Assembly: GCA_048882505.1 (NCBI GenBank)
Contig: JBHLRO010000011.1
Coordinates: 60,001-92,000, forward strand
Length of the DNA stretch: 32,000 nt
DNA from: Candidatus Thorarchaeota archaeon
GTDB lineage: Archaea > Asgardarchaeota > Heimdallarchaeia > Hodarchaeales > Hodarchaeaceae
Direction: 5' to 3'
In this document: piece after piece, positions 264 through 19,016 of the stretch
Layout of the letters: each line of letters starts with the position of its first letter
How positions within the stretch are numbered: the first letter of the stretch is position 1
Notes under the pieces: generated by a model
What the model was told of the DNA's origin: nothing
The model's database searches: none
What the model saw: the letters and a program-made list of their open reading frames with translations, nothing else
Translations under genes and position numbers: made by a program

Positions 264-473
264 TTAGGATCTTGTTCCTCTTATCAGGAGCACTCCAACG
301 ATTAAAAAGCCAACCCCCCAAACTGACCAGGGGATCATCGCTGTTGGATCGAAAGGTAACTTAAGCATCAATCCTCTCGTTGTAAATAAGAATAGGAATA
401 AAGCAATGCTAATTAGTCCCCATCCCAGAATCATGGTATAGGTGAGCTGAAATTCCTCCTTTGGTTCTTTCAC
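264..473 (-). CDS. small two-TM membrane protein (69 aa, GTG start)
   Basis: Two hydrophobic segments. A TTTTTAAA TATA lies 45 nt upstream on the minus strand (518-525). The N-terminus MKEPKEEFQLTY resembles MKKPKVDLWITY at 3776, which has the same TATA spacing. Confidence 0.5.
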   Translation of the reverse strand: MKEPKEEFQLTYTMILGWGLISIALFLFLFTTRGLMLKLPFDPTAMIPWSVWGVGFLIVGVLLIRGTRS

Positions 474-517
474 CGCAATCCCTGCAATCCTTGATCTTAG
501 GTATAGGGAATTAGACC

Positions 518-525
518 TTTAAAAA
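518..525 (-). promoter_or_regulatory. divergent TATA box (TTTTTAAA on minus strand)
   Basis: Conserved at 3821-3828. Both copies lie 45 nt from a GTG start (473 and 3776). Confidence 0.55.
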
Positions 526-730
526 TTCATGCATTTTTTCATCTGTTGTTTCTTTTTGGAATCTGATTCAATTCTTAAATATCAAGGTTCGGGTTGTGTG
601 CGTTCCAACAAGAGTTCCTACAGTTATCTGAGAAGCCTATTGCCTGATTGAAGAAAAAGCACTCTCTTTTATCTTCCTCAGATCTGGGTAGTGGGGGGGA
701 GTGAAGGTTGGGAGACGATTCGTTTTTGGC

Positions 731-744
731 CAAAGATTTTTAAA
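731..744 (+). promoter_or_regulatory. BRE/TATA promoter CAAAGATTTTTAAA
   Basis: Archaeal TATA-like box with a purine-rich BRE. It is conserved at 3911-3925 and 4856-4870, and each copy ends 53 nt before an SD-preceded start codon. Confidence 0.65.
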
Positions 745-796
745 TCAGATTTAGCTACCATGGGACTAAATCTTTTCACCGTGAGAAGGAGGATTG

Positions 797-910
797 TTGA
801 GTGTGGCGGATCTAAAGACAGAAATCCATGATAACCTCCTGTACAATCTTGGTATTCCCTTATTGAGCCTGATTGCTGTTTTGAAATCGGTCTTCGGAGG
901 GGATGCGTAA
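797..910 (+). CDS. unannotated 37-aa small protein/leader peptide, copy 1 (MSVADLKTEIHDNLLYNLGIPLLSLIAVLKSVFGGDA)
   Basis: AGGAGG SD followed by a TTG start. The stop lies 2 nt before the SBP ATG. Same length and conserved residues as the ORF at 3978-4091. Confidence 0.55.
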   Translation: MSVADLKTEIHDNLLYNLGIPLLSLIAVLKSVFGGDA

Positions 911-912
911 AA

Positions 913-2724
913 ATGAAAAGGAAAGCGTTCTTTCTATTACTAGGACTGAACATTCTTTTTCTTTTACTTCCTATAAGTCTAATGAATATCTCAGATACTA
1001 ATCCTGAATCTGTTTTGGCTGCGCCTACAGCGCCTACTATCGATTCCCTAGTTATTATCCACACCCAATCGACCGATTTTGTGGGCTACGTGATTGGGGC
1101 CTTTCGAAACTGGTATAATGCTAAGTACGGGATTTCCATCATAGTCGATAACATTGAAATGACCTCTTCTGCTGCCTCAGCTCAGGTTTCGACCTGGGGT
1201 GGTGCTCCACTTGCCGACGTTTGGTGGGGGGGAGGAGAGTTTGAGTTTGAGATACGTCGGAACGAAGGAGGTCTTTTAGAACCTTACCGCGTTTTGGAAG
1301 ATGTGAATATCGCTTCATATTTATCCGGATGGCATTTGAAAGATGATTCGGGTGACTTTAGCGATCCTGTCTGGTATGGCGCGGCCCTTTCAGGATTTGG
1401 AATCATGTATAATACCGAATACCTGGCTGCCAACGGATTGGAGATTCCGAGAACGTGGGGCGATTTAACTAACCACTCGTACAAAGGACACATTACGATG
1501 GCTAGTCCACAGTTTAGTGGCTTAACTACCGCGACAGTGAAAATGCTACTTCAAGAGTTTAACACTCAAGCAGATAGTGGTAAGCTGGATTATAGCGGAA
1601 ATGCATCAGAAGGGTGGAGTTTCTGGGCGAAAATAGCAGGAAACATGGGAGAATTTGCATCATCTAGCTCCAAGGTTCCCCGAAACGTGTTTGAAGGAAC
1701 TTATGGGATTGGCATTACGATTGATTATTTCGCCTGGGATTATATCGCGTTGAGCTCAGCGATCGGATTCACATATGGTGGGGTATCCACCTTCAGCCCA
1801 GACCCTGCGGCTGTGCTTACTGGTGCACCAAACATGGTTCAAGGGAAACGGTTCATGGATTATCTTACGAGTACCGAAGGACAGGTCAAGCTAGGTAAAT
1901 ATCGAATTCCTGTCAATAGAGAAGCGGTCCCTGAAAGTACTCGGATCCCGCGAGCGTGGGATGCCACAGGAAACATTAATCCGATGTTTCCATTGCTTGA
2001 TCCATTCAATGTTTCCGTTGATAGCTTAATTCATTCTAGAGCACGAGAACTCTTTGCTTATTGGTTTGTATTAGGACAGAACGCTCAGAAGGCCGCAGAT
2101 GCATATGATGCGATTGGAAAAGCCACCGATGCTATTGCAAGGACCAAAGCCCTTGCGTTATATACAAAATTGCCTTCAACTTATGATGGTACGCTTGGAG
2201 ATTTGAGAGCTCAAAATTATACTGATCCAGCGATTCGAAATCTTTGGGCAACGGAAGGTGCGTTCCATTTTGACGCGGCCAAAACAGAAGCCCAAACTAT
2301 CATAGATCAATTTGCGCCTGAAATTGGGCTCCAATCTCCTCTTGTAAATGAAACAACTTATCCTCCAGAGACTACTATAACTCTATATATCGTCGATGAC
2401 AATCCAATTAGCCAAGTGCTCTATCATTGGGATACTGAACCCAACAGCACTCTTCCGTTCCCATATAGCATTACACTTCCCTCAACGAATGGGACCCATA
2501 TCCTGAAGGTCTTTGCCAAGGATACTTTAGGAAATGAGGGCCAAGCAGTGTTTGTTTTTCAAGTAAACATTTATTCAACCCTACCTTCTGAACAATCTAC
2601 AACGTCGAAGCCGACTAAAACTACTGAAATAACGGAGTTACAATTGGGATTGATCGAAATAGTCACTGTCAGCTCATGTTTGGGGCTCTCAAGGTTTTAT
2701 GGCAAAAAACAGAAGAAAATATGA
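913..2724 (+). CDS. ABC transporter substrate-binding protein (AfuA/Fe3+-thiamine-polyamine type) with C-terminal Ig-like module and membrane anchor
   Basis: N-terminal signal peptide. SBP motifs DVWWGGG, GFGIMYN, GITIDY, PDPAAVL and RFMDYLTS.EGQ. These are followed by a beta-rich module (GTHILKVFAKDTLGN), an S/T-rich linker, a hydrophobic segment and a basic tail. Confidence 0.85.
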   Translation: MKRKAFFLLLGLNILFLLLPISLMNISDTNPESVLAAPTAPTIDSLVIIHTQSTDFVGYVIGAFRNWYNAKYGISIIVDNIEMTSSAASAQVSTWGGAPLADVWWGGGEFEFEIRRNEGGLLEPYRVLEDVNIASYLSGWHLKDDSGDFSDPVWYGAALSGFGIMYNTEYLAANGLEIPRTWGDLTNHSYKGHITMASPQFSGLTTATVKMLLQEFNTQADSGKLDYSGNASEGWSFWAKIAGNMGEFASSSSKVPRNVFEGTYGIGITIDYFAWDYIALSSAIGFTYGGVSTFSPDPAAVLTGAPNMVQGKRFMDYLTSTEGQVKLGKYRIPVNREAVPESTRIPRAWDATGNINPMFPLLDPFNVSVDSLIHSRARELFAYWFVLGQNAQKAADAYDAIGKATDAIARTKALALYTKLPSTYDGTLGDLRAQNYTDPAIRNLWATEGAFHFDAAKTEAQTIIDQFAPEIGLQSPLVNETTYPPETTITLYIVDDNPISQVLYHWDTEPNSTLPFPYSITLPSTNGTHILKVFAKDTLGNEGQAVFVFQVNIYSTLPSEQSTTSKPTKTTEITELQLGLIEIVTVSSCLGLSRFYGKKQKKI

Positions 2725-2897
2725 AATGGTTAATTTGGAAACAGATGGGTAGATCCTAAATTCACAGTTCAGATCGGGTATAAAGTGGAAGTCCGCAAAT
2801 TAAATATCGAGATTACCATTGAACTCAAATCTAAGACGATTTAATGGATTTCTGCGTGATAAAAGAGCCTATGACCCGAATAGAAGGTCAGTTTTTT
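2724..2897 (+). repeat. downstream element copy D1
   Basis: 2747-2761 matches 5457-5471 at 14/15 nt. 2806-2897 aligns with 4663-4758, and the hairpin part matches at 25/29 nt. Confidence 0.8.
2863..2897 (+). terminator. hairpin (TGACC...GGTCA) + T-tract, candidate terminator
   Basis: 5-bp perfect stem followed by T6. It lies between the convergent genes 913-2724 and 3007-3666, and a second copy sits at 4721-4758. Confidence 0.45.
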
Positions 2898-3006
2898 GAT
2901 GACAAAGAACTTCCTAAAATCTTATGAGAATAATGCTGTTTTTTGGAATTTCCGATCTTATAGGTGACATTATGCAGGGTATCAGATCTCCGATAATCCC
3001 ACTGGA

Positions 3007-3666
3007 TTATGAACAAAAGCCAAAGAATAAAGGAAACATAACCTGGACAGAAGCAATAAGGAGTCCAAGGAACATCCCAATGTGTATAACGATTGCTATG
3101 ATTGCGTCCCTGGTAGAATTTATCTCCATATCAATCATCCGGTCGATTCCATGCCTCCCGATATAAAGACTTTGAACAAAAACGGCAGTAATCAATACGG
3201 GGCCAAAAATGAGAGAAGGAAGAAGAACGGGGAATTTAAAGATCCCATTTCCTCTGCCGGTCCAGTTAAGGTCTATAACATCGATGGCATCGGCTCGAAT
3301 ACCGTAAACCAGGAATATAGAGGCAATGAATCCCAAGAATAAGCCGATTAGGAAGATAAAACGCCATTTCCCCCCATGAGAAATGTACCGAGTGAACCCA
3401 CCCAGTCCAAGACCTGTTGGTACAGCGATAAAAATCAAAAGCAGCTCTGAAACGAAAGGATTCATATCGAAGTACAGACAATGATCTTTATACTGAATCC
3501 ACCATAAGCTCTGAGCTATCACCACTTTCTCGTCTACCCCAATGGGATCTGGAGGCCACGGGAGAATGGGGAAGAATAACAGATCAAGCAATATGCTAAG
3601 ATAAGATAAAAAGCCGAGTATCCCGAGGAAAAGCCCGAATACCGCAGTCAGTTCGCGCATCTGCAT
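3007..3666 (-). CDS. hypothetical multi-pass membrane protein
   Basis: 219-aa ORF with about 5 hydrophobic segments and no recognised family. Confidence 0.7.
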   Translation of the reverse strand: MQMRELTAVFGLFLGILGFLSYLSILLDLLFFPILPWPPDPIGVDEKVVIAQSLWWIQYKDHCLYFDMNPFVSELLLIFIAVPTGLGLGGFTRYISHGGKWRFIFLIGLFLGFIASIFLVYGIRADAIDVIDLNWTGRGNGIFKFPVLLPSLIFGPVLITAVFVQSLYIGRHGIDRMIDMEINSTRDAIIAIVIHIGMFLGLLIASVQVMFPLFFGFCS

Positions 3667-3776
3667 GTGTTTAACTTTCCATTTACGAAATTTGGCGGTA
3701 GACCTCCCGTATCGAACGCTTTATAGATTTCGAGAACATCGTAAGTAATCCAAAGATCCACCTTTGGTTTTTTCAC
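3648..3776 (-). CDS. putative 42-aa ORF (MKKPKVDLWITYDVLEIYKAFDTGGLPPNFVNGKLNTCRCAN), or frameshifted 5' part of 3007-3666
   Basis: GTG start in the same context and at the same TATA spacing as the 473 start. It overlaps the 3666 start by 19 nt. Confidence 0.3.
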   Translation of the reverse strand: MKKPKVDLWITYDVLEIYKAFDTGGLPPNFVNGKLNTCRCAN

Positions 3777-4091
3777 CTCAATCCCTTCAAACGTTGACAG
3801 GTATAAAAGCGTGGTAGACATTTAAAAATCTTTCATTTTCCCATTGTAGGTCTTCTTTTGGAATCTGGTTTAGTTCTGGATTGATAACTGGGAGACGAAT
3901 CATCTTTGACCAAAGGTTTTTTAAAGTACATTTGGCTATTATGGGACTAAATCTTTTCACCTTGAGAAGGAGGATTGATGATTGTGGCTCATTTGGAGGT
4001 TGTCATCCAGGATAAAACATTTGAAAATCTGGCTATTTTCTTACAGACTCCGATTATGATGTTGGTTTGGGTAGGGGTGTCGAATTTCTGA
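3757..4091. repeat. upstream element copy U2
   Basis: Aligns with U1 on both arms but lacks about 120 nt of U1 (590-709, bounded by AAGGTT direct repeats at 584-589 and 704-709). Confidence 0.85.
3978..4091 (+). CDS. unannotated 37-aa small protein/leader peptide, copy 2 (MIVAHLEVVIQDKTFENLAIFLQTPIMMLVWVGVSNF)
   Basis: AGGAGG SD followed by ATG. The stop falls at codon 38, exactly as in copy 1. Confidence 0.55.
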   Translation: MIVAHLEVVIQDKTFENLAIFLQTPIMMLVWVGVSNF

Positions 4092-4311
4092 TTTGGCATC
4101 AAACAAATATCTGGCCGCAATATGAAGCGCAACAAGGTTTGACAATGTGGTTAGCTTTTACTTCTTTGCTCATAGTCGTCTCGGTGTTGGAGCTAGGGGC
4201 AAATATTAAGGTTAAATTTGAACCAAGATGCCAGTGAGGATGTAATTTGAACAAATATTCGATTAAGGTTACTTATGAGATGTTAAAACCCTCCTCAGAA
4301 AATTTAAAGGG

Positions 4312-4605
4312 GTGAATGAGCTGAAAAAGAAATATAGAATCATTGAATTGATCCTCATCGGTGGTATGCTGCTAATTTCCGCAAATCCTCTGGTTCCTGC
4401 CTCGGGTCCCCAACAGAAGGAACTAAAAAGTGTTCCTTATCAAAAATTGGCGGAAAGGATTGAAATGGAGAATTCGGGAACTTCAAACGGTACAGCCAGT
4501 CCCACAAGTCAAGTTATAAGTCCAAGGGAGCCGTTTTCATTACTTCTATTGATAGTCCTAATCCATCTTTTCGAAAGGTGGAGGAATCCAAGAAAAGGAG
4601 GGTAA
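4312..4605 (+). CDS. small secreted/surface protein: signal peptide, S/T-rich linker, C-terminal hydrophobic anchor with basic tail
   Basis: MNELKKKYRIIELILIGGMLLISANP is signal-like. The C-terminus is PFSLLLLIVLIHLFERWRNPRKGG. Confidence 0.55.
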   Translation: MNELKKKYRIIELILIGGMLLISANPLVPASGPQQKELKSVPYQKLAERIEMENSGTSNGTASPTSQVISPREPFSLLLLIVLIHLFERWRNPRKGG

Positions 4606-4758
4606 ACACCTGATGAGGTAACGGCCCATGATCAGCATAAAGCGTTGTTACGGAAACCGAACATGGAGATTACCACTTAACTTAATTTTAGTCAGACTAG
4701 AGTGAATTTCTAATAGGTTGAAGAGCCTATGATCCGAGCGGAAGGTCAGGCTTTTTTT
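4575..4758 (+). repeat. downstream element copy D2, ending in hairpin GCCTATGATC...GGTCAGGC + T7
   Basis: Aligns with D1 2806-2897. The 5' part (GGGTAAACACCTGATGAGG) resembles D3 (GGGTAGATCCGAAATGAGG). The 5' boundary is approximate. Confidence 0.75.
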
Positions 4759-4809
4759 ATTCATCCTAAATCGGAAAATAAAACCAGAAGGTAAAAGCCG
4801 TAAAGGCTA

Positions 4810-5041
4810 TCATCCTTGAGGGAGGGAAAAACGGGAGATTAGGGTAAAGATGCATCAAAGATTTTTTAAATTGCATTCACCTTGTTTTTGACTAGTTCTC
4901 TTCTCCTTGAGATGGAGGATTGATGAGGATGGCTGAATTGGAATTTGATATCCGTGACAGGGGTTTCATAATATAGCTCATTTACTATTGCCTCCGGTTA
5001 TGACCCTGCAAAAACAGTCTTCTATGAATAAGAGGAAATAA
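4810..5041 (+). repeat. upstream element copy U3 (right arm only)
   Basis: CAAAGATTTTTTAAA at 4856-4870 and TTGAGATGGAGGATTGATG at about 4907-4925. Same 53-nt TATA-to-start spacing as U1 and U2. Confidence 0.7.
4923..5041 (+). pseudogene. third copy of the small ORF, frameshifted by a 1-nt deletion near 4968
   Basis: Reads MRMAELEFDIRDRGFII* as written. Restoring one base after codon 15 gives ...GFxNIAHLLLPPVMTLQKQSSMNKRK* (39 aa), which aligns with copies 1 and 2 and ends 6 nt before the 5048 ATG. Confidence 0.5.
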
Positions 5042-5047
5042 AACAAC

Positions 5048-5404
5048 ATGACATCATTCAATTTGGTACGATTTGACTGTCCATGTGGAAATTCGGTCGA
5101 AGCTTTCTTGCCCCAGAGTATTTGCACCTGGTTGGATCCCGCTCTGGTAGAACAGTTACTCGACCGTAGCCTCTTCTCTGTGGTCTGTAAATCCTGTCAA
5201 AACGTCATTGAGATTAGCACGGTGGTTTTGATGAATACCCCGCGAGGAATGTGGTATTTACGCACCGATCGCGACATTGCTGAGATAAAAACGTTCCTCT
5301 TCAGATCAGATGTGGCTGATGAAGAAGGAAATGTTTATTCACCCCAAGAAATGATGGAAAAGTTAGAATCCCATAAAAGAAACAAGACATATCAAAAAAG
5401 CTAA
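5048..5404 (+). CDS. CpXC domain zinc-binding protein
   Basis: CPCG...DPALVEQLLDRSLFSVVCKSC fits the CpXC (PF14353-like) pattern as I recall it. Confidence 0.75.
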   Translation: MTSFNLVRFDCPCGNSVEAFLPQSICTWLDPALVEQLLDRSLFSVVCKSCQNVIEISTVVLMNTPRGMWYLRTDRDIAEIKTFLFRSDVADEEGNVYSPQEMMEKLESHKRNKTYQKS

Positions 5405-5429
5405 ATACCTTTAAAGCAATTCATCAGGC

Positions 5430-5478
5430 AAAAATGGCTTGAATAACCAAACTACGGGGTAGATCCGAAATGAGGGCG
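5430..5478 (+). repeat. downstream element copy D3 (5' part only)
   Basis: AAATGG...AAT....AAAC....GGGTAGATCC.AAAT has the same spacing as in D1 2724-2761. Confidence 0.65.
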
Positions 5479-5501: not shown

Positions 5502-5990
5502 TTACACAGCAATTCTGAGAGTTTGAGAAAGATATTGATCTCTTATTTCCGAGTCTGTTCTACTTAAAATAGTAGAAACATAAGCTTCTCTTTCATGCCA
5601 AAAGATCTCTAAGTCCCATACACAAAATGATTCTTCAGCTTGTGCTTGTTGCCATTCATTCCCGTTATGGATAAATACCTTTGTCGGTAACTCATTCTCC
5701 CGATCCCACCAGCATAGAACTACATAATTACCAGTTAATCCCTGATGAACGATCAAAAATCCCAAACCAGGGCGTCCAGGGGCCAAAGGAGAAGAAGGAA
5801 GGAAATTAGAAGCAAGTTCAATTCCTTTTTCAAACAGATCCCATTGTATTGGTTTCGAGCCATATAAAACAGAATAAGTTTTAATTTGGAACCCTTTCAG
5901 TTCCCGAATTCCATGAAAATCAATTGTTCTCGGGCGATAAGGAGCATAATCAAGCGAATATTCTCTTTCGTTTTTCATAGTCATCAGCAT
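5502..5990 (-). CDS. conserved hypothetical protein (probable start at 5978)
   Basis: 162-aa ORF with globular composition and motifs GFLIVHQG, WWDRENEL and CVWDLEIFWHEREA. It resembles an uncharacterised bacterial-type family from memory; not verified. Confidence 0.7.
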   Translation of the reverse strand: MLMTMKNEREYSLDYAPYRPRTIDFHGIRELKGFQIKTYSVLYGSKPIQWDLFEKGIELASNFLPSSPLAPGRPGLGFLIVHQGLTGNYVVLCWWDRENELPTKVFIHNGNEWQQAQAEESFCVWDLEIFWHEREAYVSTILSRTDSEIRDQYLSQTLRIAV

Positions 5991-6153: not shown

Positions 6154-6687
6154 TTAGATTTGCTTTGCGAATGTATAGGTTTTATTGCCCTTCTTGACTA
6201 GTTGGAAAAGCCCATCTTTTGATATTTCATGGAGAATCGTATCCTCCGTTAAATGATGATCACTGAACGATAATCTTCCTCTATCCTTTAAGATTCGGTG
6301 CAATTCTTGTAATACACTAAACTGCTCACTTAATGCATGAAAAACATCATAAAACAGGACGACATCAATGGTTTCATTATCAAGGCCCGTCGTACAATTG
6401 GAAAGGATTGTTGTTATGGTATTTTGTAACCCATTCTTAACCGCAGCCTTTTTGACCTGTTCAATGGCAAGAGGATGAATGTCTAAGGCATAAACTTTAC
6501 CTGAAGCTTTTACAATCTGTGCAGCCGCAATAGAAAAACTTCCTGGCCCGCAACCATAATCCAGAATGGATGAATCTGGGCTTAAATCGATTTCACTAAG
6601 AATTTTTGTTGGTGGTGAGAAAAAATCGCGTGCCCTGAACCATAAGGCCATCATTCTGAAGCTAAAATTGCTCTGGGGATTGTCCAT
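6154..6687 (-). CDS. class I SAM-dependent methyltransferase
   Basis: Motif I ILDYGCGPG, then VYALDI, IDVVLFYD and ELHRILKDRG. Confidence 0.9.
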   Translation of the reverse strand: MDNPQSNFSFRMMALWFRARDFFSPPTKILSEIDLSPDSSILDYGCGPGSFSIAAAQIVKASGKVYALDIHPLAIEQVKKAAVKNGLQNTITTILSNCTTGLDNETIDVVLFYDVFHALSEQFSVLQELHRILKDRGRLSFSDHHLTEDTILHEISKDGLFQLVKKGNKTYTFAKQI

Positions 6688-7062
6688 GTTTTTTCAGCAG
6701 TATTGAGACAGAAATATCGTTATAAAAAAGCAATAGGGTGATGGCATAGGAAATAGAGCGGCTTTCACACAATCTTGGTGTACCTAGTGTACAATAATGT
6801 TGTGATGTTGTATGGGAAGGAAAAGTCGAAGTTACCGTTTGAAACGGCCGTAATAGTACTAGAGGGCGTCTATGGGCATCCCAAGATCCTATTGTTTGAT
6901 CGAGAGATCAATTGTTTTGTCATTCTTTGACCGAGAGCTTCAGGGTTTGTGAACAATTGCCGTTTTCGAGTGCATAAGCCTTATAGATTACTGTATTCAC
7001 CCTAAGGAGCTCGTAACGGAATATAAACGAGTCTTACGATGTGAACAAATTAGTGGTTTACG

Positions 7063-8580
7063 ATGGCGGTGCCAGAAAAAACGAGTGACAAGAACATTAA
7101 TGTGCTCGAAATTTCAGCTGAGGGCTCTCGGTTATTCAAATATACGAAATTCAACATTAGAGACGTCAATGGGACGACTTCTCTGATTGGACGAAAATCA
7201 ACCTTGCGATTTTTCTTAATCTGGGCAATAGGAGGGATCTCAGTGCCCATAGTGGCCACTGGCTTTGGTACCTTTCAATCCTCCATTCTTTTATCCTCTG
7301 AATATCAAATGCAAGGAATGTACATTCTTGTAATCCTTCTAGCCTCAATTTGGATCAGTGGATTTATCCTGTTTTACTATAAAGTTTTGAGAAAAGCCGT
7401 TCTCCCTGATATTAAATTTTGGAATATGGAAAACCAGTATATGGGCAAAATCCGGGAATTACCACACAAAGGAAACTACCAGATTTACGATGATAAAGGT
7501 ACGCTTCTTTCTTCTCTGAAATTCAACCCTTTTGGTCAAAAACGTTTTCTCAGTATGGATACGGCGGATAATCGCCGATTTACTTCGGACTATAAGTATC
7601 TTGATAGGCCTGAGGGTATCTACCATGAAATTGCGTACAGGGGTCTCCATTCTGAACTAAGAATCGTCGATTCAGCCGAAAGGCTCGCTTTTTACGTGAA
7701 AACTGGGGTAACCACAAAACAATCCCAAAAATACCGAATTCAAAATGATTTGGTTAAGATTTACGATCCGCGAAGTGTGTTTAACTTTGCACTAGCAGCA
7801 TTTTGTTGTCTTTTTCACCTTGAAAGACAGGATTTTAGAAATTTTATTATTTCTCCAGAGGATTCAGAGGAGACAGAGGTAAAATCAACGCGAGAACGAT
7901 ATCTCGCTCTTTCTTTCCCTATTCAGATTCTTTTTCTCCCCCTAATTCTTATAGACATTCCAATTTACCTTTTCTTTGAAATCAGTAAACTTATTCATAG
8001 GTTCATTATCAGAGGTATTTATTACGGAGTCAAAAGTCAAAAATGGCCTACTACACAAGGAGAAGTTGTAGCCACGACCTTTTCCAATGGGACGGGGGCG
8101 CCCACATTTAATGCCTACTATGAATATGAGATCCATCTACAAAGATACAATTCCCAAAGGAGGGTTTTTGGCTATCAGGATGCCAAGAAAAATGATCCAC
8201 TGCCCTTGACTGAAAAATATACTGTTGGAAAACCAGTTCAAGTATATTATCACCCAAAAAACCCAGGAATTGCAGTTCTTGAACCAGGACTAGTATCTCC
8301 TGGTATTCCAACACTGATTTTTGATTCGCTCATCTATGGGGCACCTGGTATCGCAATATTGATGTCGTTATTACTGTTACAAATTGGGATTTGGGTGAAT
8401 CTAATCAATATGTTATTACTACTTAATGACTCGCCTCCAATTGAACCTGAGTTTGGTTTCAGTTTTTCAATAAACGCCGCGATTGATCCAAGCTGGTTAT
8501 TTATATTATTTGTAGTAGTGGCTCTGTTCATCATCTTTAGAAGGCTAAGAGGAAAAGTAAACGGAAGTAAACAGGGATAG
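7063..8580 (+). CDS. membrane protein: LURP-one/scramblase-like N-terminal region fused to DUF3592
   Basis: The C-terminal half has a typical DUF3592 pattern (WPTTQGEV...YEY...Y.VGKPVQVYYHPKNP..AVLEPG) flanked by TMs. The N-terminal half has repeated beta-hairpins (FNIRDVNG, YQIYDDKG, LRIVDSAE) ending in a hydrophobic helix. Confidence 0.7.
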   Translation: MAVPEKTSDKNINVLEISAEGSRLFKYTKFNIRDVNGTTSLIGRKSTLRFFLIWAIGGISVPIVATGFGTFQSSILLSSEYQMQGMYILVILLASIWISGFILFYYKVLRKAVLPDIKFWNMENQYMGKIRELPHKGNYQIYDDKGTLLSSLKFNPFGQKRFLSMDTADNRRFTSDYKYLDRPEGIYHEIAYRGLHSELRIVDSAERLAFYVKTGVTTKQSQKYRIQNDLVKIYDPRSVFNFALAAFCCLFHLERQDFRNFIISPEDSEETEVKSTRERYLALSFPIQILFLPLILIDIPIYLFFEISKLIHRFIIRGIYYGVKSQKWPTTQGEVVATTFSNGTGAPTFNAYYEYEIHLQRYNSQRRVFGYQDAKKNDPLPLTEKYTVGKPVQVYYHPKNPGIAVLEPGLVSPGIPTLIFDSLIYGAPGIAILMSLLLLQIGIWVNLINMLLLLNDSPPIEPEFGFSFSINAAIDPSWLFILFVVVALFIIFRRLRGKVNGSKQG

Positions 8581-18038: not shown

Positions 18039-19016
18039 TTAAGGTTTGGAATAATTAAGAAACGAATCCTCAATGAACTTCATTGTATCCTTTCTTAAGG
18101 GGCCAAATTCGAGCGATTGCGCATTTTCGGTTAGTTGTTGAACATTTTTTGCTCCAGGTATAGGTATTGCGGAATCACTGAGGGCCCATATATATCCAAG
18201 TGCGGCTTGAGCCAAAGTTCTGCCATCTTCGGTTAATTTATCCTTAATAAGATTGACAAAATTCTTCATATTTGCAAAATACCCTTCTTTAAGGTTTACT
18301 CCCTTTAACCAATGATTATCTGGCAGTATATAATCCTCAGAATATTTTCCAGTAAGTAATCCATATCCGAGGGGGCTTCGAATTACACTTGCCAAGCTAT
18401 TTTTCTCACATAAACGTATCATTTCAGGATTATTCTTGGTAAAATTCAGGATGTATTGCATTGCCGTACAATTCTTTCCCTCAGCAAAGATTGCTGCTCG
18501 CTCAACATCATCAGTACTCCAACCATAACCGCCTATGATACCTTCAGATACTAGGTCTTCTAATGTTTCACGAACGTTTGGAGCATCTTCAATAGGACAT
18601 TCCCACCAGTGAAATTGATACAGATCAATAAAATCAGTTTCTAATCTTTTGCAGCTATCAAATACAGCCTTCCGAATATAATCTGGTGCAGACGTATGCT
18701 TATCGTAAATAGTCCTGGTTCCTTCCTCAAACATGCTCCCAAATTTCGTTGCAATAACAATATCATCCCGATAATCATATAGTGCCCTTCCTAGAACCTT
18801 TTCACTATGCCCAGTCCCGTAGACATCTGCAGTATCAAAGAAATTAATCCCCAAATCTACTGCCTTACGAACCGTTTTAATTGATTCTTCATCGTCCACA
18901 TGGCCGTACCCCAAATATCTACCATCTGGTAACTGGAAAGGGCCTCCAATAGCCCAACAGCCCATACCTAGTGGAGTAACACGTTTTTTACTCCCTTTTA
19001 TAGTCAAATATCGCAT
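18039..19016 (-). CDS. aldo/keto reductase
   Basis: LGMGCWAIGG, FFDTADVYG, IATKFG, IDLYQFH and PIPGAK. The start is probably ATG 19016. Confidence 0.93.
   Translation of the reverse strand: MRYLTIKGSKKRVTPLGMGCWAIGGPFQLPDGRYLGYGHVDDEESIKTVRKAVDLGINFFDTADVYGTGHSEKVLGRALYDYRDDIVIATKFGSMFEEGTRTIYDKHTSAPDYIRKAVFDSCKRLETDFIDLYQFHWWECPIEDAPNVRETLEDLVSEGIIGGYGWSTDDVERAAIFAEGKNCTAMQYILNFTKNNPEMIRLCEKNSLASVIRSPLGYGLLTGKYSEDYILPDNHWLKGVNLKEGYFANMKNFVNLIKDKLTEDGRTLAQAALGYIWALSDSAIPIPGAKNVQQLTENAQSLEFGPLRKDTMKFIEDSFLNYSKP

Follow-up and report, generated by a model that had tools for sequence, protein, structure and literature searches.

Displaced 3′ ends of tfb separate unrelated cargo genes in a Hodarchaeales genome: a probable fossil stack of homing-endonuclease cassettes

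Mobile endonuclease open reading frames (mORFs) in the mitochondrial DNA of the fungi Glomus and Allomyces bring a foreign C-terminal segment into a host gene and displace the native one downstream: the targets are atp6 in Allomyces macrogynus and atp6, atp9, cox2 and nad3 in Glomus, and the C-terminal copies share 63.5% nucleotide and 91% amino acid identity (PMC3630166). HeimM2, an 8-kb element of Heimdallarchaeum, is located between 16S rRNA and tRNA genes and encodes a homologue of homing endonucleases of the rRNA-intron type (PMC8813620). Here we describe a locus in a 4.3-Mb assembly of a Candidatus Thorarchaeota archaeon of the Hodarchaeales (GCA_048882505.1; G000 below) at which unrelated cargo genes are separated by direct repeats, named D. 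The window under study is a stretch of 32 kb (positions 60,001 to 92,000 of contig JBHLRO010000011.1, C11 below; coordinates refer to the window unless another sequence is named). The D repeats are displaced 3′ ends of tfb, a core transcription factor gene, and the locus is probably a fossil stack of homing-endonuclease cassettes, each of which brought in a replacement tfb tail together with cargo.

The gene-end replacement by mORFs is the closest known parallel: there, too, a foreign C-terminal segment comes in and the native one is left downstream. Both systems have an endonuclease gene at the 3′ end of the host gene (LAGLIDADG here, LAGLIDADG or GIY-YIG in mORFs) and an in-frame replacement of the tail. 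The nuclease gene lies inside the insert at the tfb 3′ end (intact in the related genomes G018, G020 and G010 and in the metagenome contigs L109 and L110, as a relic in G013 and G000, and absent from the empty site of G001), and the C-terminal segment of tfb is duplicated, with the upstream copy in frame and live and the downstream copy displaced. Unlike in mORFs, the setting is an archaeal chromosome, the target is a transcription factor gene and the nuclease gene is convergent rather than fused in phase; moreover, up to eight layers are stacked, each with one to several cargo genes, which gives the locus the look of a gene-capture array. HeimM2 is similar in being a small mobile element of a Heimdall-group archaeon with a free-standing homing-endonuclease-like gene, but no gene-tail replacement or stacking is described for it (PMC8813620). 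By this analogy, our best reading is that the locus would be a chromosomal, multi-layer, archaeal version of a known gene-end replacement. If true, gene-end replacement driven by an endonuclease would have its first chromosomal and multi-layer example outside organelles here, in the archaeal group closest to eukaryotes; no description of tfb-tail arrays or of this nuclease family was found in the literature searched.

Each D repeat corresponds to the last ~22 codons of tfb plus a spacer of ~95 nucleotides with two hairpins, one of 7-8 base pairs and one terminator-like and followed by a T-run; compensatory changes are present in both. Da, the first copy, overlaps with a live 3′ end, that of a gene encoding TFIIB cyclin repeats and a TFIIB zinc ribbon. 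This anchor tfb comes after radA and a PAC2 gene, 10 kb before the start of the window. G000 has eight copies (seven clear, one weak), all direct and all within ~17 kb (C11 49.98-66.95 kb), in the order Da, Db, Dc, Dd and De from tfb, followed by D1, D2 and D8 in the window; a search of the whole assembly found none elsewhere. D1 (2755-2897, plus strand) consists of a tfb tail relic (2755-2823) that reads ..FTVQIGYKVEVRKLNIEITI and has lost its stop codon, followed by the spacer with both hairpins and a T-run that ends at 2897. D2 (4612-4758, plus strand) has a tail relic (4612-4680) that reads DEVTAHDQHKALLRKPNMEITT and retains the stop codon, followed by the hairpin spacer and a T-run. The repeat of D1 and D2 was already noticed in an initial annotation made from the window alone and holds: 2780-2897 and 4637-4755 are 67% identical (BLAST, E 3e-10), and both match the five copies upstream of the window. 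A third copy that was proposed there (5430-5478) fell away, as it consists of a lone 14/15 match, of which about one is expected by chance in an 8-kb self-comparison, and a D profile extended to the left found no copy there even at E 100. The third copy in the window is instead D8 (6774-6948, plus strand), the most decayed tail and spacer of all (matching over 6797-6948, E 1.6e-4 against De by BLAST, E 2e-5 with an nhmmer profile), which marks the right end of the array and is probably the original tfb tail.

The proposal that D and a second repeat, U (see below), form part of a system akin to non-autonomous elements did not stand up: D is not a transposon end, and both repeats lack the traits of miniature inverted-repeat elements, with no dispersed copies (one 17-kb stretch, one orientation) and no terminal inverted repeats found. 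Rfam covariance models gave no match at the gathering score within the 32-kb window, and thus none for U or D. The first spacer hairpin is a near-palindrome (ACTAG, 7-9 nucleotides, CTAGT) at a fixed distance from the tfb stop in every D (for example at 2848-2868 and 4700-4720), with compensatory changes that preserve the pairing; a role as a protein-binding site is conceivable besides that of an RNA hairpin.

The tails carry a signature of selection. Over the 22 codons available for each tail, the proportion of non-synonymous differences to the live tail (pN) is 0.07 for Dc and Dd, 0.14 for De, 0.22 for D1, 0.27 for D2, 0.36 for Db and 0.51 for D8, and synonymous differences are near saturation (pS 0.6-0.98; 0.98 for D1, 0.60 for D2). 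A tail that decays in place is expected to have a pN of about half its pS, which for Dc predicts about 21 non-synonymous differences: only 3.5 are seen. Divergence is mainly synonymous for Dc, Dd, De and D1, but not for the decayed Db, D2 and D8. Because pN is so far below half of pS, most tails are likely to have diverged under selection in other lineages and to have been displaced afterwards; each displaced tail would thus once have been functional, as part of tfb elsewhere. With the exception of Db, pN climbs with the distance from tfb and is highest in D8, and this gradient of decay fits new layers entering beside the live gene.

An orthologous TFB (95% amino acid identity, 75-79% nucleotide identity) is present in eight of the 21 other genomes of the genus, and five of these eight have direct tfb-tail arrays of their own, with five extra tails in G018, three in G003, two in G020 and one each in G021 and G013, all 66-164 nucleotides long and downstream of tfb. 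None of their cargo is in common with G000; some cassettes of G018 consist of a single gene between repeats of 70-95 nucleotides. In G001, tfb is directly followed by a conserved 322-aa gene, which is found just past the last tail in G013, G003 and G018: G001 has an empty site. An alignment of G013 with G001 reveals a clean insert of ~0.9 kb that contains a nuclease relic and a PIN-domain gene and is flanked by a 93-nucleotide duplication (24 nucleotides coding and 69 downstream). The PIN gene is also present in the array of G003, in a different layer. Differences between the G001 and G013 tails cluster toward the tfb 3′ end, and the 93-nucleotide repeat is too short to tell a native from a foreign tail. 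The different arrays, the empty site and the insert of G013 together indicate that the arrays were built by insertion and differ between species. Two statements of the initial annotation can be judged from these data: a cassette array with unrelated cargo between repeated flanks is supported, and its content turns over, as seen from the other cargo of the relatives and the one empty site, and the situation that would have spoken for a mere old duplication, U and D occurring only here with the same cargo order in relatives, was not found, as the relatives' arrays differ in cargo.

Data on the population come from the assembled contigs of four DNA runs, from which rare variants could escape. In the Logan assembly of the run that is probably the source, two overlapping contigs cover the array, one of 15.9 kb (C11 49488-65373) and one with D8 and the right flank; in a run of a different study, the array is fragmented, at about 100% identity. 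Contigs from strains of ~92% identity align only to the right of position 6958, just past D8, and the left edge of Dd is the break point of another variant contig. As far as contigs can tell, these breakpoints fit strain differences that are cassette-wise; the loose ends of the variant contigs have no match among the sequences compared.

The only gene that is recurrently next to the live tfb tail encodes the LAGLIDADG-like protein. This gene of 410-740 codons lies tail-to-tail with tfb in G018, G020 (two loci), G010, L109 and L110, and among 83 genomes of the class the family is confined to this genus. Searches of the protein against Pfam and against the sequences in the PDB gave no match. An AF2 model, based on an alignment of eight homologues (pLDDT 79), has PI-PkoII, I-DmoI and PI-SceI as top Foldseek matches (TM 0.55-0.63 for PI-PkoII and I-DmoI), and the motif ends GDG (G148-D149-G150) and DDG (D245-D246) are invariant in all eight homologues: by this model, the product of the tfb-convergent gene folds as a double-LAGLIDADG nuclease, with two α-β-β-α-β-β-α units and LAGLIDADG helices that end in acidic residues. 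The predicted core fold and the motif ends resemble I-DmoI and other archaeal monomeric double-motif LAGLIDADG enzymes. Unlike I-DmoI, the protein has no detected sequence similarity to solved structures or Pfam families, and it stands alone rather than being part of an intron or intein; a helical domain is added at its N-terminus and, in the tfb-linked nucleases, a helix-turn-helix-like tail at its C-terminus. The family is unannotated and a possible source of new nucleases with long targets.

Relics of the nuclease C-terminus are identifiable in G000 by profile search behind Da (E 2e-5), Dc (E 8e-7) and Dd (E 7e-3) and weakly behind Db, and at the DNA level the similarity beyond Da, Db, Dc, Dd and D1 extends for another ~80 nucleotides, which on the minus strand encode the ~25 C-terminal residues of a protein. 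The relic behind D1 (2897-2975, minus strand) comprises the last ~25 codons and reads NVTYKIGNSKKQHYSHKILG..; it was recognised by its DNA similarity to the flanks of Dc and Dd (C11 54800-54983 vs 62779-62956 and 57927-58007 vs 62892-62971) and its translation, as the protein HMM alone is not significant (E 16). Nuclease relics thus follow four or five of the eight G000 tails.

Two further observations concern the neighbourhood of the nuclease genes. In several elements, the nuclease gene is separated from the tfb tail, live or displaced, by the gene for a protein of 176-199 aa without known family (L086 of G018, 18251-18838, minus strand; L087 of G020, 2090-2620; L089 of G003, reverse complement, 4173-4727; L109, 5462-6061). 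Copies of this protein are 47-51% identical to each other, and it is absent from G000. A second LAGLIDADG-like branch (39-42% identity, without the C-terminal tail) has a conserved neighbourhood away from tfb (L097, G007 contig C52, 1471-2751; L100, G001 contig C96, 1495-2724; L099, G014 contig C411, 728-1969): it adjoins a gene of 385-391 codons, and in G007 and G001 also a membrane protein gene of 353-381 codons. This branch may be a domesticated copy or may have another target.

In the mechanism that we propose, the window would hold the three oldest layers (E5-E7) of an eight-layer stack behind tfb. Each layer would have come as a small mobile cassette that contains, besides cargo, a LAGLIDADG gene convergent on tfb, a replacement tail for tfb and a spacer that includes a bidirectional terminator. 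The nuclease would cut tfb alleles that have no cassette, and repair from a cassette-bearing allele would copy the cassette in, with the new tail keeping tfb intact and the old tail being pushed downstream; repeated rounds from diverged donors would leave direct D repeats separated by unrelated cargo. All nuclease genes of G000 would since have decayed to C-terminal stubs and the stack would now be a fossil. It could then be read as a dated record of successive gene arrivals and would show how Asgard archaea can acquire cargo such as transporters and redox proteins without an integrase.

Several observations weigh against this mechanism. No intact nuclease gene was found in G000 and no nuclease relic behind De, D2 and D8. 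In the contigs of the four runs, no empty-site, presence/absence or circular joints were seen, including the empty junctions and circles that the initial annotation had suggested to look for in reads. Db is more decayed than Dc to De, which makes the age gradient imperfect, and the selection test has only 22 codons per tail. A segment common to the cassettes that end in Dc and D2 has diverged without bias in codon position, which fits in-place duplication, and the U module is unique to G000, its role being read from three copies and their motifs alone.

A more far-reaching proposal would be that the Hodarchaeales own an integron-like gene-capture platform driven by the homing endonuclease, with the tfb tail and a U-type promoter module as homology arms for the swapping and expression of cargo; we consider this rather unlikely.

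It is also conceivable that the tfb tail is the attB hot spot of a site-specific recombinase, with elements that carry attP and an integrase that is lost or acts in trans. Direct repeats of a 3′ end, variable cargo and an empty site are indeed the classic picture of such a hot spot: the array would then resemble tRNA-gene islands or tycheposon remnants, and the single-gene cassettes of G018 look integron-like. With integrons, tRNA-gene islands and tycheposon remnants, the locus shares direct repeats that split unrelated cargo beside a fixed anchor gene and a content that varies between strains. Unlike in integrons and tRNA-gene islands, no integrase and no attC-type sites were found and the repeat is a gene tail with variable edges; in addition, the cargo occupies either strand, frequently with a promoter-like region of its own. 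No match to PF00589 is present in or near the arrays of G000, G018, G020 and G003, in a search that did not cover serine recombinases or unknown integrase types, and the sole match on the G007 contig that carries tfb is 14 kb away from this gene, on its upstream side. Moreover, it is the LAGLIDADG protein that recurs beside the live tail, and the starts of the repeats range from about -24 to -70 nucleotides before the tfb stop codon, although the edges are blurred by decay: this variation of about 45 nucleotides would fit repair tracts better than a fixed recombinase or att core. We therefore regard a recombinase hot spot as improbable. The integron-like reading of the initial annotation shares this fate, as C11 encodes no tyrosine recombinase (the one PF00589 match in G000 is on C5) and D is a gene tail and not an attC site. 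That no recombinase is visible in the window is true, but a nuclease gene relic (at about 2897-2975) is; the linked recombinase that the initial annotation suggested to look for outside the window did not turn up either, neither as a Phage_integrase match on C11 nor in Pfam scans of the array proteins, which were not specifically aimed at serine recombinases.

The cargo of the three layers in the window is diverse. E5 (De to D1) has two short minus-strand open reading frames (ORFs), the U1 copy of the U module and a solute-binding protein (SBP) of 603 aa with a C-terminal anchor (913-2724, plus strand; Pfam SBP_bac_6 and SBP_bac_1). A 72% identical paralogue of the SBP is encoded on contig C15 of G000 and 75% identical homologues in G016, none of which adjoins U or D; the paralogue elsewhere in the genome indicates that cargo is drawn from the gene pool of the lineage. 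E6 (D1 to D2) has the nuclease relic, a predicted membrane protein of 219 aa that is either cargo or filler (3007-3666, minus strand; no Pfam family), U2 and a 97-aa ORF (4312-4605, plus strand). E7 (D2 to D8) has U3, a CpXC zinc-ribbon protein of 118 aa (5048-5404, plus strand; PF14353), a 162-aa ORF (5502-5990, minus strand) and a SAM methyltransferase of 177 aa (6154-6687, minus strand; Methyltransf_31).

The 97-aa ORF, which the initial annotation had listed as a secreted protein, is a deleted copy of a 343-aa cupredoxin/thioredoxin-like gene that precedes Dc in layer E2, 10 kb upstream. Of this gene, the signal peptide and the final 57 codons remain, and 249 internal codons have been lost in frame: 4322-4433 is 62% identical to L052 7739-7850 and 4434-4758 is 75% identical to L052 8598-8922, and the two proteins share 65% identity over 54 aa. 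The claim that the cargo genes are unrelated is thus correct among SBP, 97-aa ORF and CpXC protein, but not for the 97-aa ORF and the gene in E2. For genome annotation, several pseudo-ORFs and the odd 97-aa protein would be explained as relics. In its right half, E6 repeats that of E2 in decayed form, so that either part of the array was duplicated or a related cassette arrived a second time; with an in-place duplication of this segment, not every layer need be a separate arrival. The 343-aa protein itself (L052 7738-8769, C11 53738-54769) has a signal peptide and a C-terminal anchor; its N-terminal half is cupredoxin-like, with a 56% identical paralogue on contig C6 of G000 (157979-158428), and its second half is thioredoxin/AhpC-like and found across the genus at 36-40% identity.

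The relationship between E2 and E6 leads to a further rival, an old tandem duplication in place of tail, U and gene, with cargo that was replaced later and no mobile element. It would account for the presence of U at the G000 locus only, for copies that are all roughly equally diverged, and for the relation of the cassette that ends in D2 to the right half of the Dc cassette, of which it is a decayed copy whose substitutions lack codon bias. It does not account for Dc, Dd, De and D1, whose pN values are far below half of pS, which decay in place cannot give, nor for the independent arrays of the relatives, the empty site, the insert with the nuclease relic and the unrelated cargo. For the array as a whole we give this explanation little chance; in-place duplication may account for part of the U-bearing section. 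The same holds for the triplicated locus with replaced cargo that the initial annotation had considered: the relatives' arrays argue against a simple old duplication, but triplication is possible for the three U-bearing cassettes.

The U repeats upstream of the three cargo genes, already described in the initial annotation, were confirmed by BLAST at 69-73% identity. U1 (439-910, plus strand) consists of a left arm (439-575), an insert that is private to it relative to U2 (576-697, 122 nucleotides), a core (698-874) and an open frame of 37 codons (797-910). U2 (3742-4091, plus strand) has a left arm (3742-3877), a core (3878-4055) and a 37-codon frame (3978-4091), and U3 (4826-5003, plus strand) has only the core, starting at 4856 by BLAST and extended by MAFFT to about 4826, with the open frame cut to 17 codons. 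The matches are 439-575 vs 3742-3877 (69%, E 6e-15), 698-874 vs 3878-4055 (73%, E 1e-29) and 3911-4059 vs 4856-5003 (70%, E 1e-18); U3 matches only the core of U2. A fourth trace is found in E2, where 47 nucleotides of core (C11 53687-53733) immediately precede the thioredoxin-like gene in its full-length form. Beyond these, no U was found in the G000 assembly, no U-like DNA in the 21 other genomes of the genus or any of the related loci fetched, and no second repeat family in the relatives' arrays.

The best-kept stretch of U (78-85% identity over ~100 nucleotides) has a CAAAG-TTTTTTAAA box, a leader of ~30 nucleotides, GGAGG and a start codon; in U1, a BRE/TATA-like motif is found near 732-745 and the GGAGG Shine-Dalgarno sequence near 786-790. 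Both the U1-U2 and the U2-U3 matches stop at U2 4055-4059, which leaves about 40-45 nucleotides to the start codons of SBP and CpXC protein. No codon periodicity is detectable in the 37-codon frame or in any other frame on either strand, and the consensus RNA fold is weak (-5.7 kcal/mol, with an unfavourable covariation term). From its sequence, we read U as a promoter-plus-leader module common to a subgroup of cassettes in G000, and not as a boundary element or recombination site: a non-coding module of ~150-440 nucleotides that precedes the plus-strand cargo of layers E5 to E7 and has a 47-nucleotide remnant in E2; it would be shared via a common cassette backbone or via unequal crossing-over between tails inside the array. 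If functional at all, U would drive expression of the cargo and would be outside the cassette machinery. The identity between copies (69-73%) exceeds the 45-55% at third codon positions of the neighbouring tails, which hints at constraint or at a younger origin. D and U as the joint unit between cassettes, as initially suggested, cannot be maintained: the boundary in general is D by itself, and relatives lack U, which adjoins D only once (D2/U3).

That the functional core of U is a conserved 37-aa small membrane protein or leader peptide is very improbable: in U1 and U2, a strong Shine-Dalgarno sequence does precede an open frame of 37 codons that starts and stops at matching positions, and both peptides have a hydrophobic C-terminal half, but amino acid identity is about 27% against 54% nucleotide identity, mismatches are spread evenly over codon positions (17/18/17), U3 is cut at codon 18, the E2 remnant stops after 8 codons, and the T-rich composition of the strand alone explains the hydrophobic codons. 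Two other origins of U were rejected: as a relic of the 176-199-aa tail-adjacent gene or of the nuclease, ATPase or helicase of intact elements, for which no HMM match was significant, and as a relic of a 151-aa gene or of the N-terminus of the thioredoxin-like gene, with which it has no similarity at protein level.

Some features around the array and the anchor gene complete the picture. Immediately beyond the right end of the array (7063-8580), in the flank that is common to the strain variants, lies the gene for a 505-aa protein that has several membrane helices and a DUF3592 domain at its C-terminus. Upstream of the window, a 408-aa cargo protein (L052 5886-7112, minus strand; C11 51886-53112) has a C-terminal cross-brace zinc finger with weak RING/FYVE-like Pfam matches; a ~92% identical copy is found in another strain (run X4) with a different right-hand neighbour. 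The anchor tfb itself is missing from the closed 4.9-Mb genome G009, though more distant families keep a 61-82% identical orthologue, and G000 has four further TFB paralogues.

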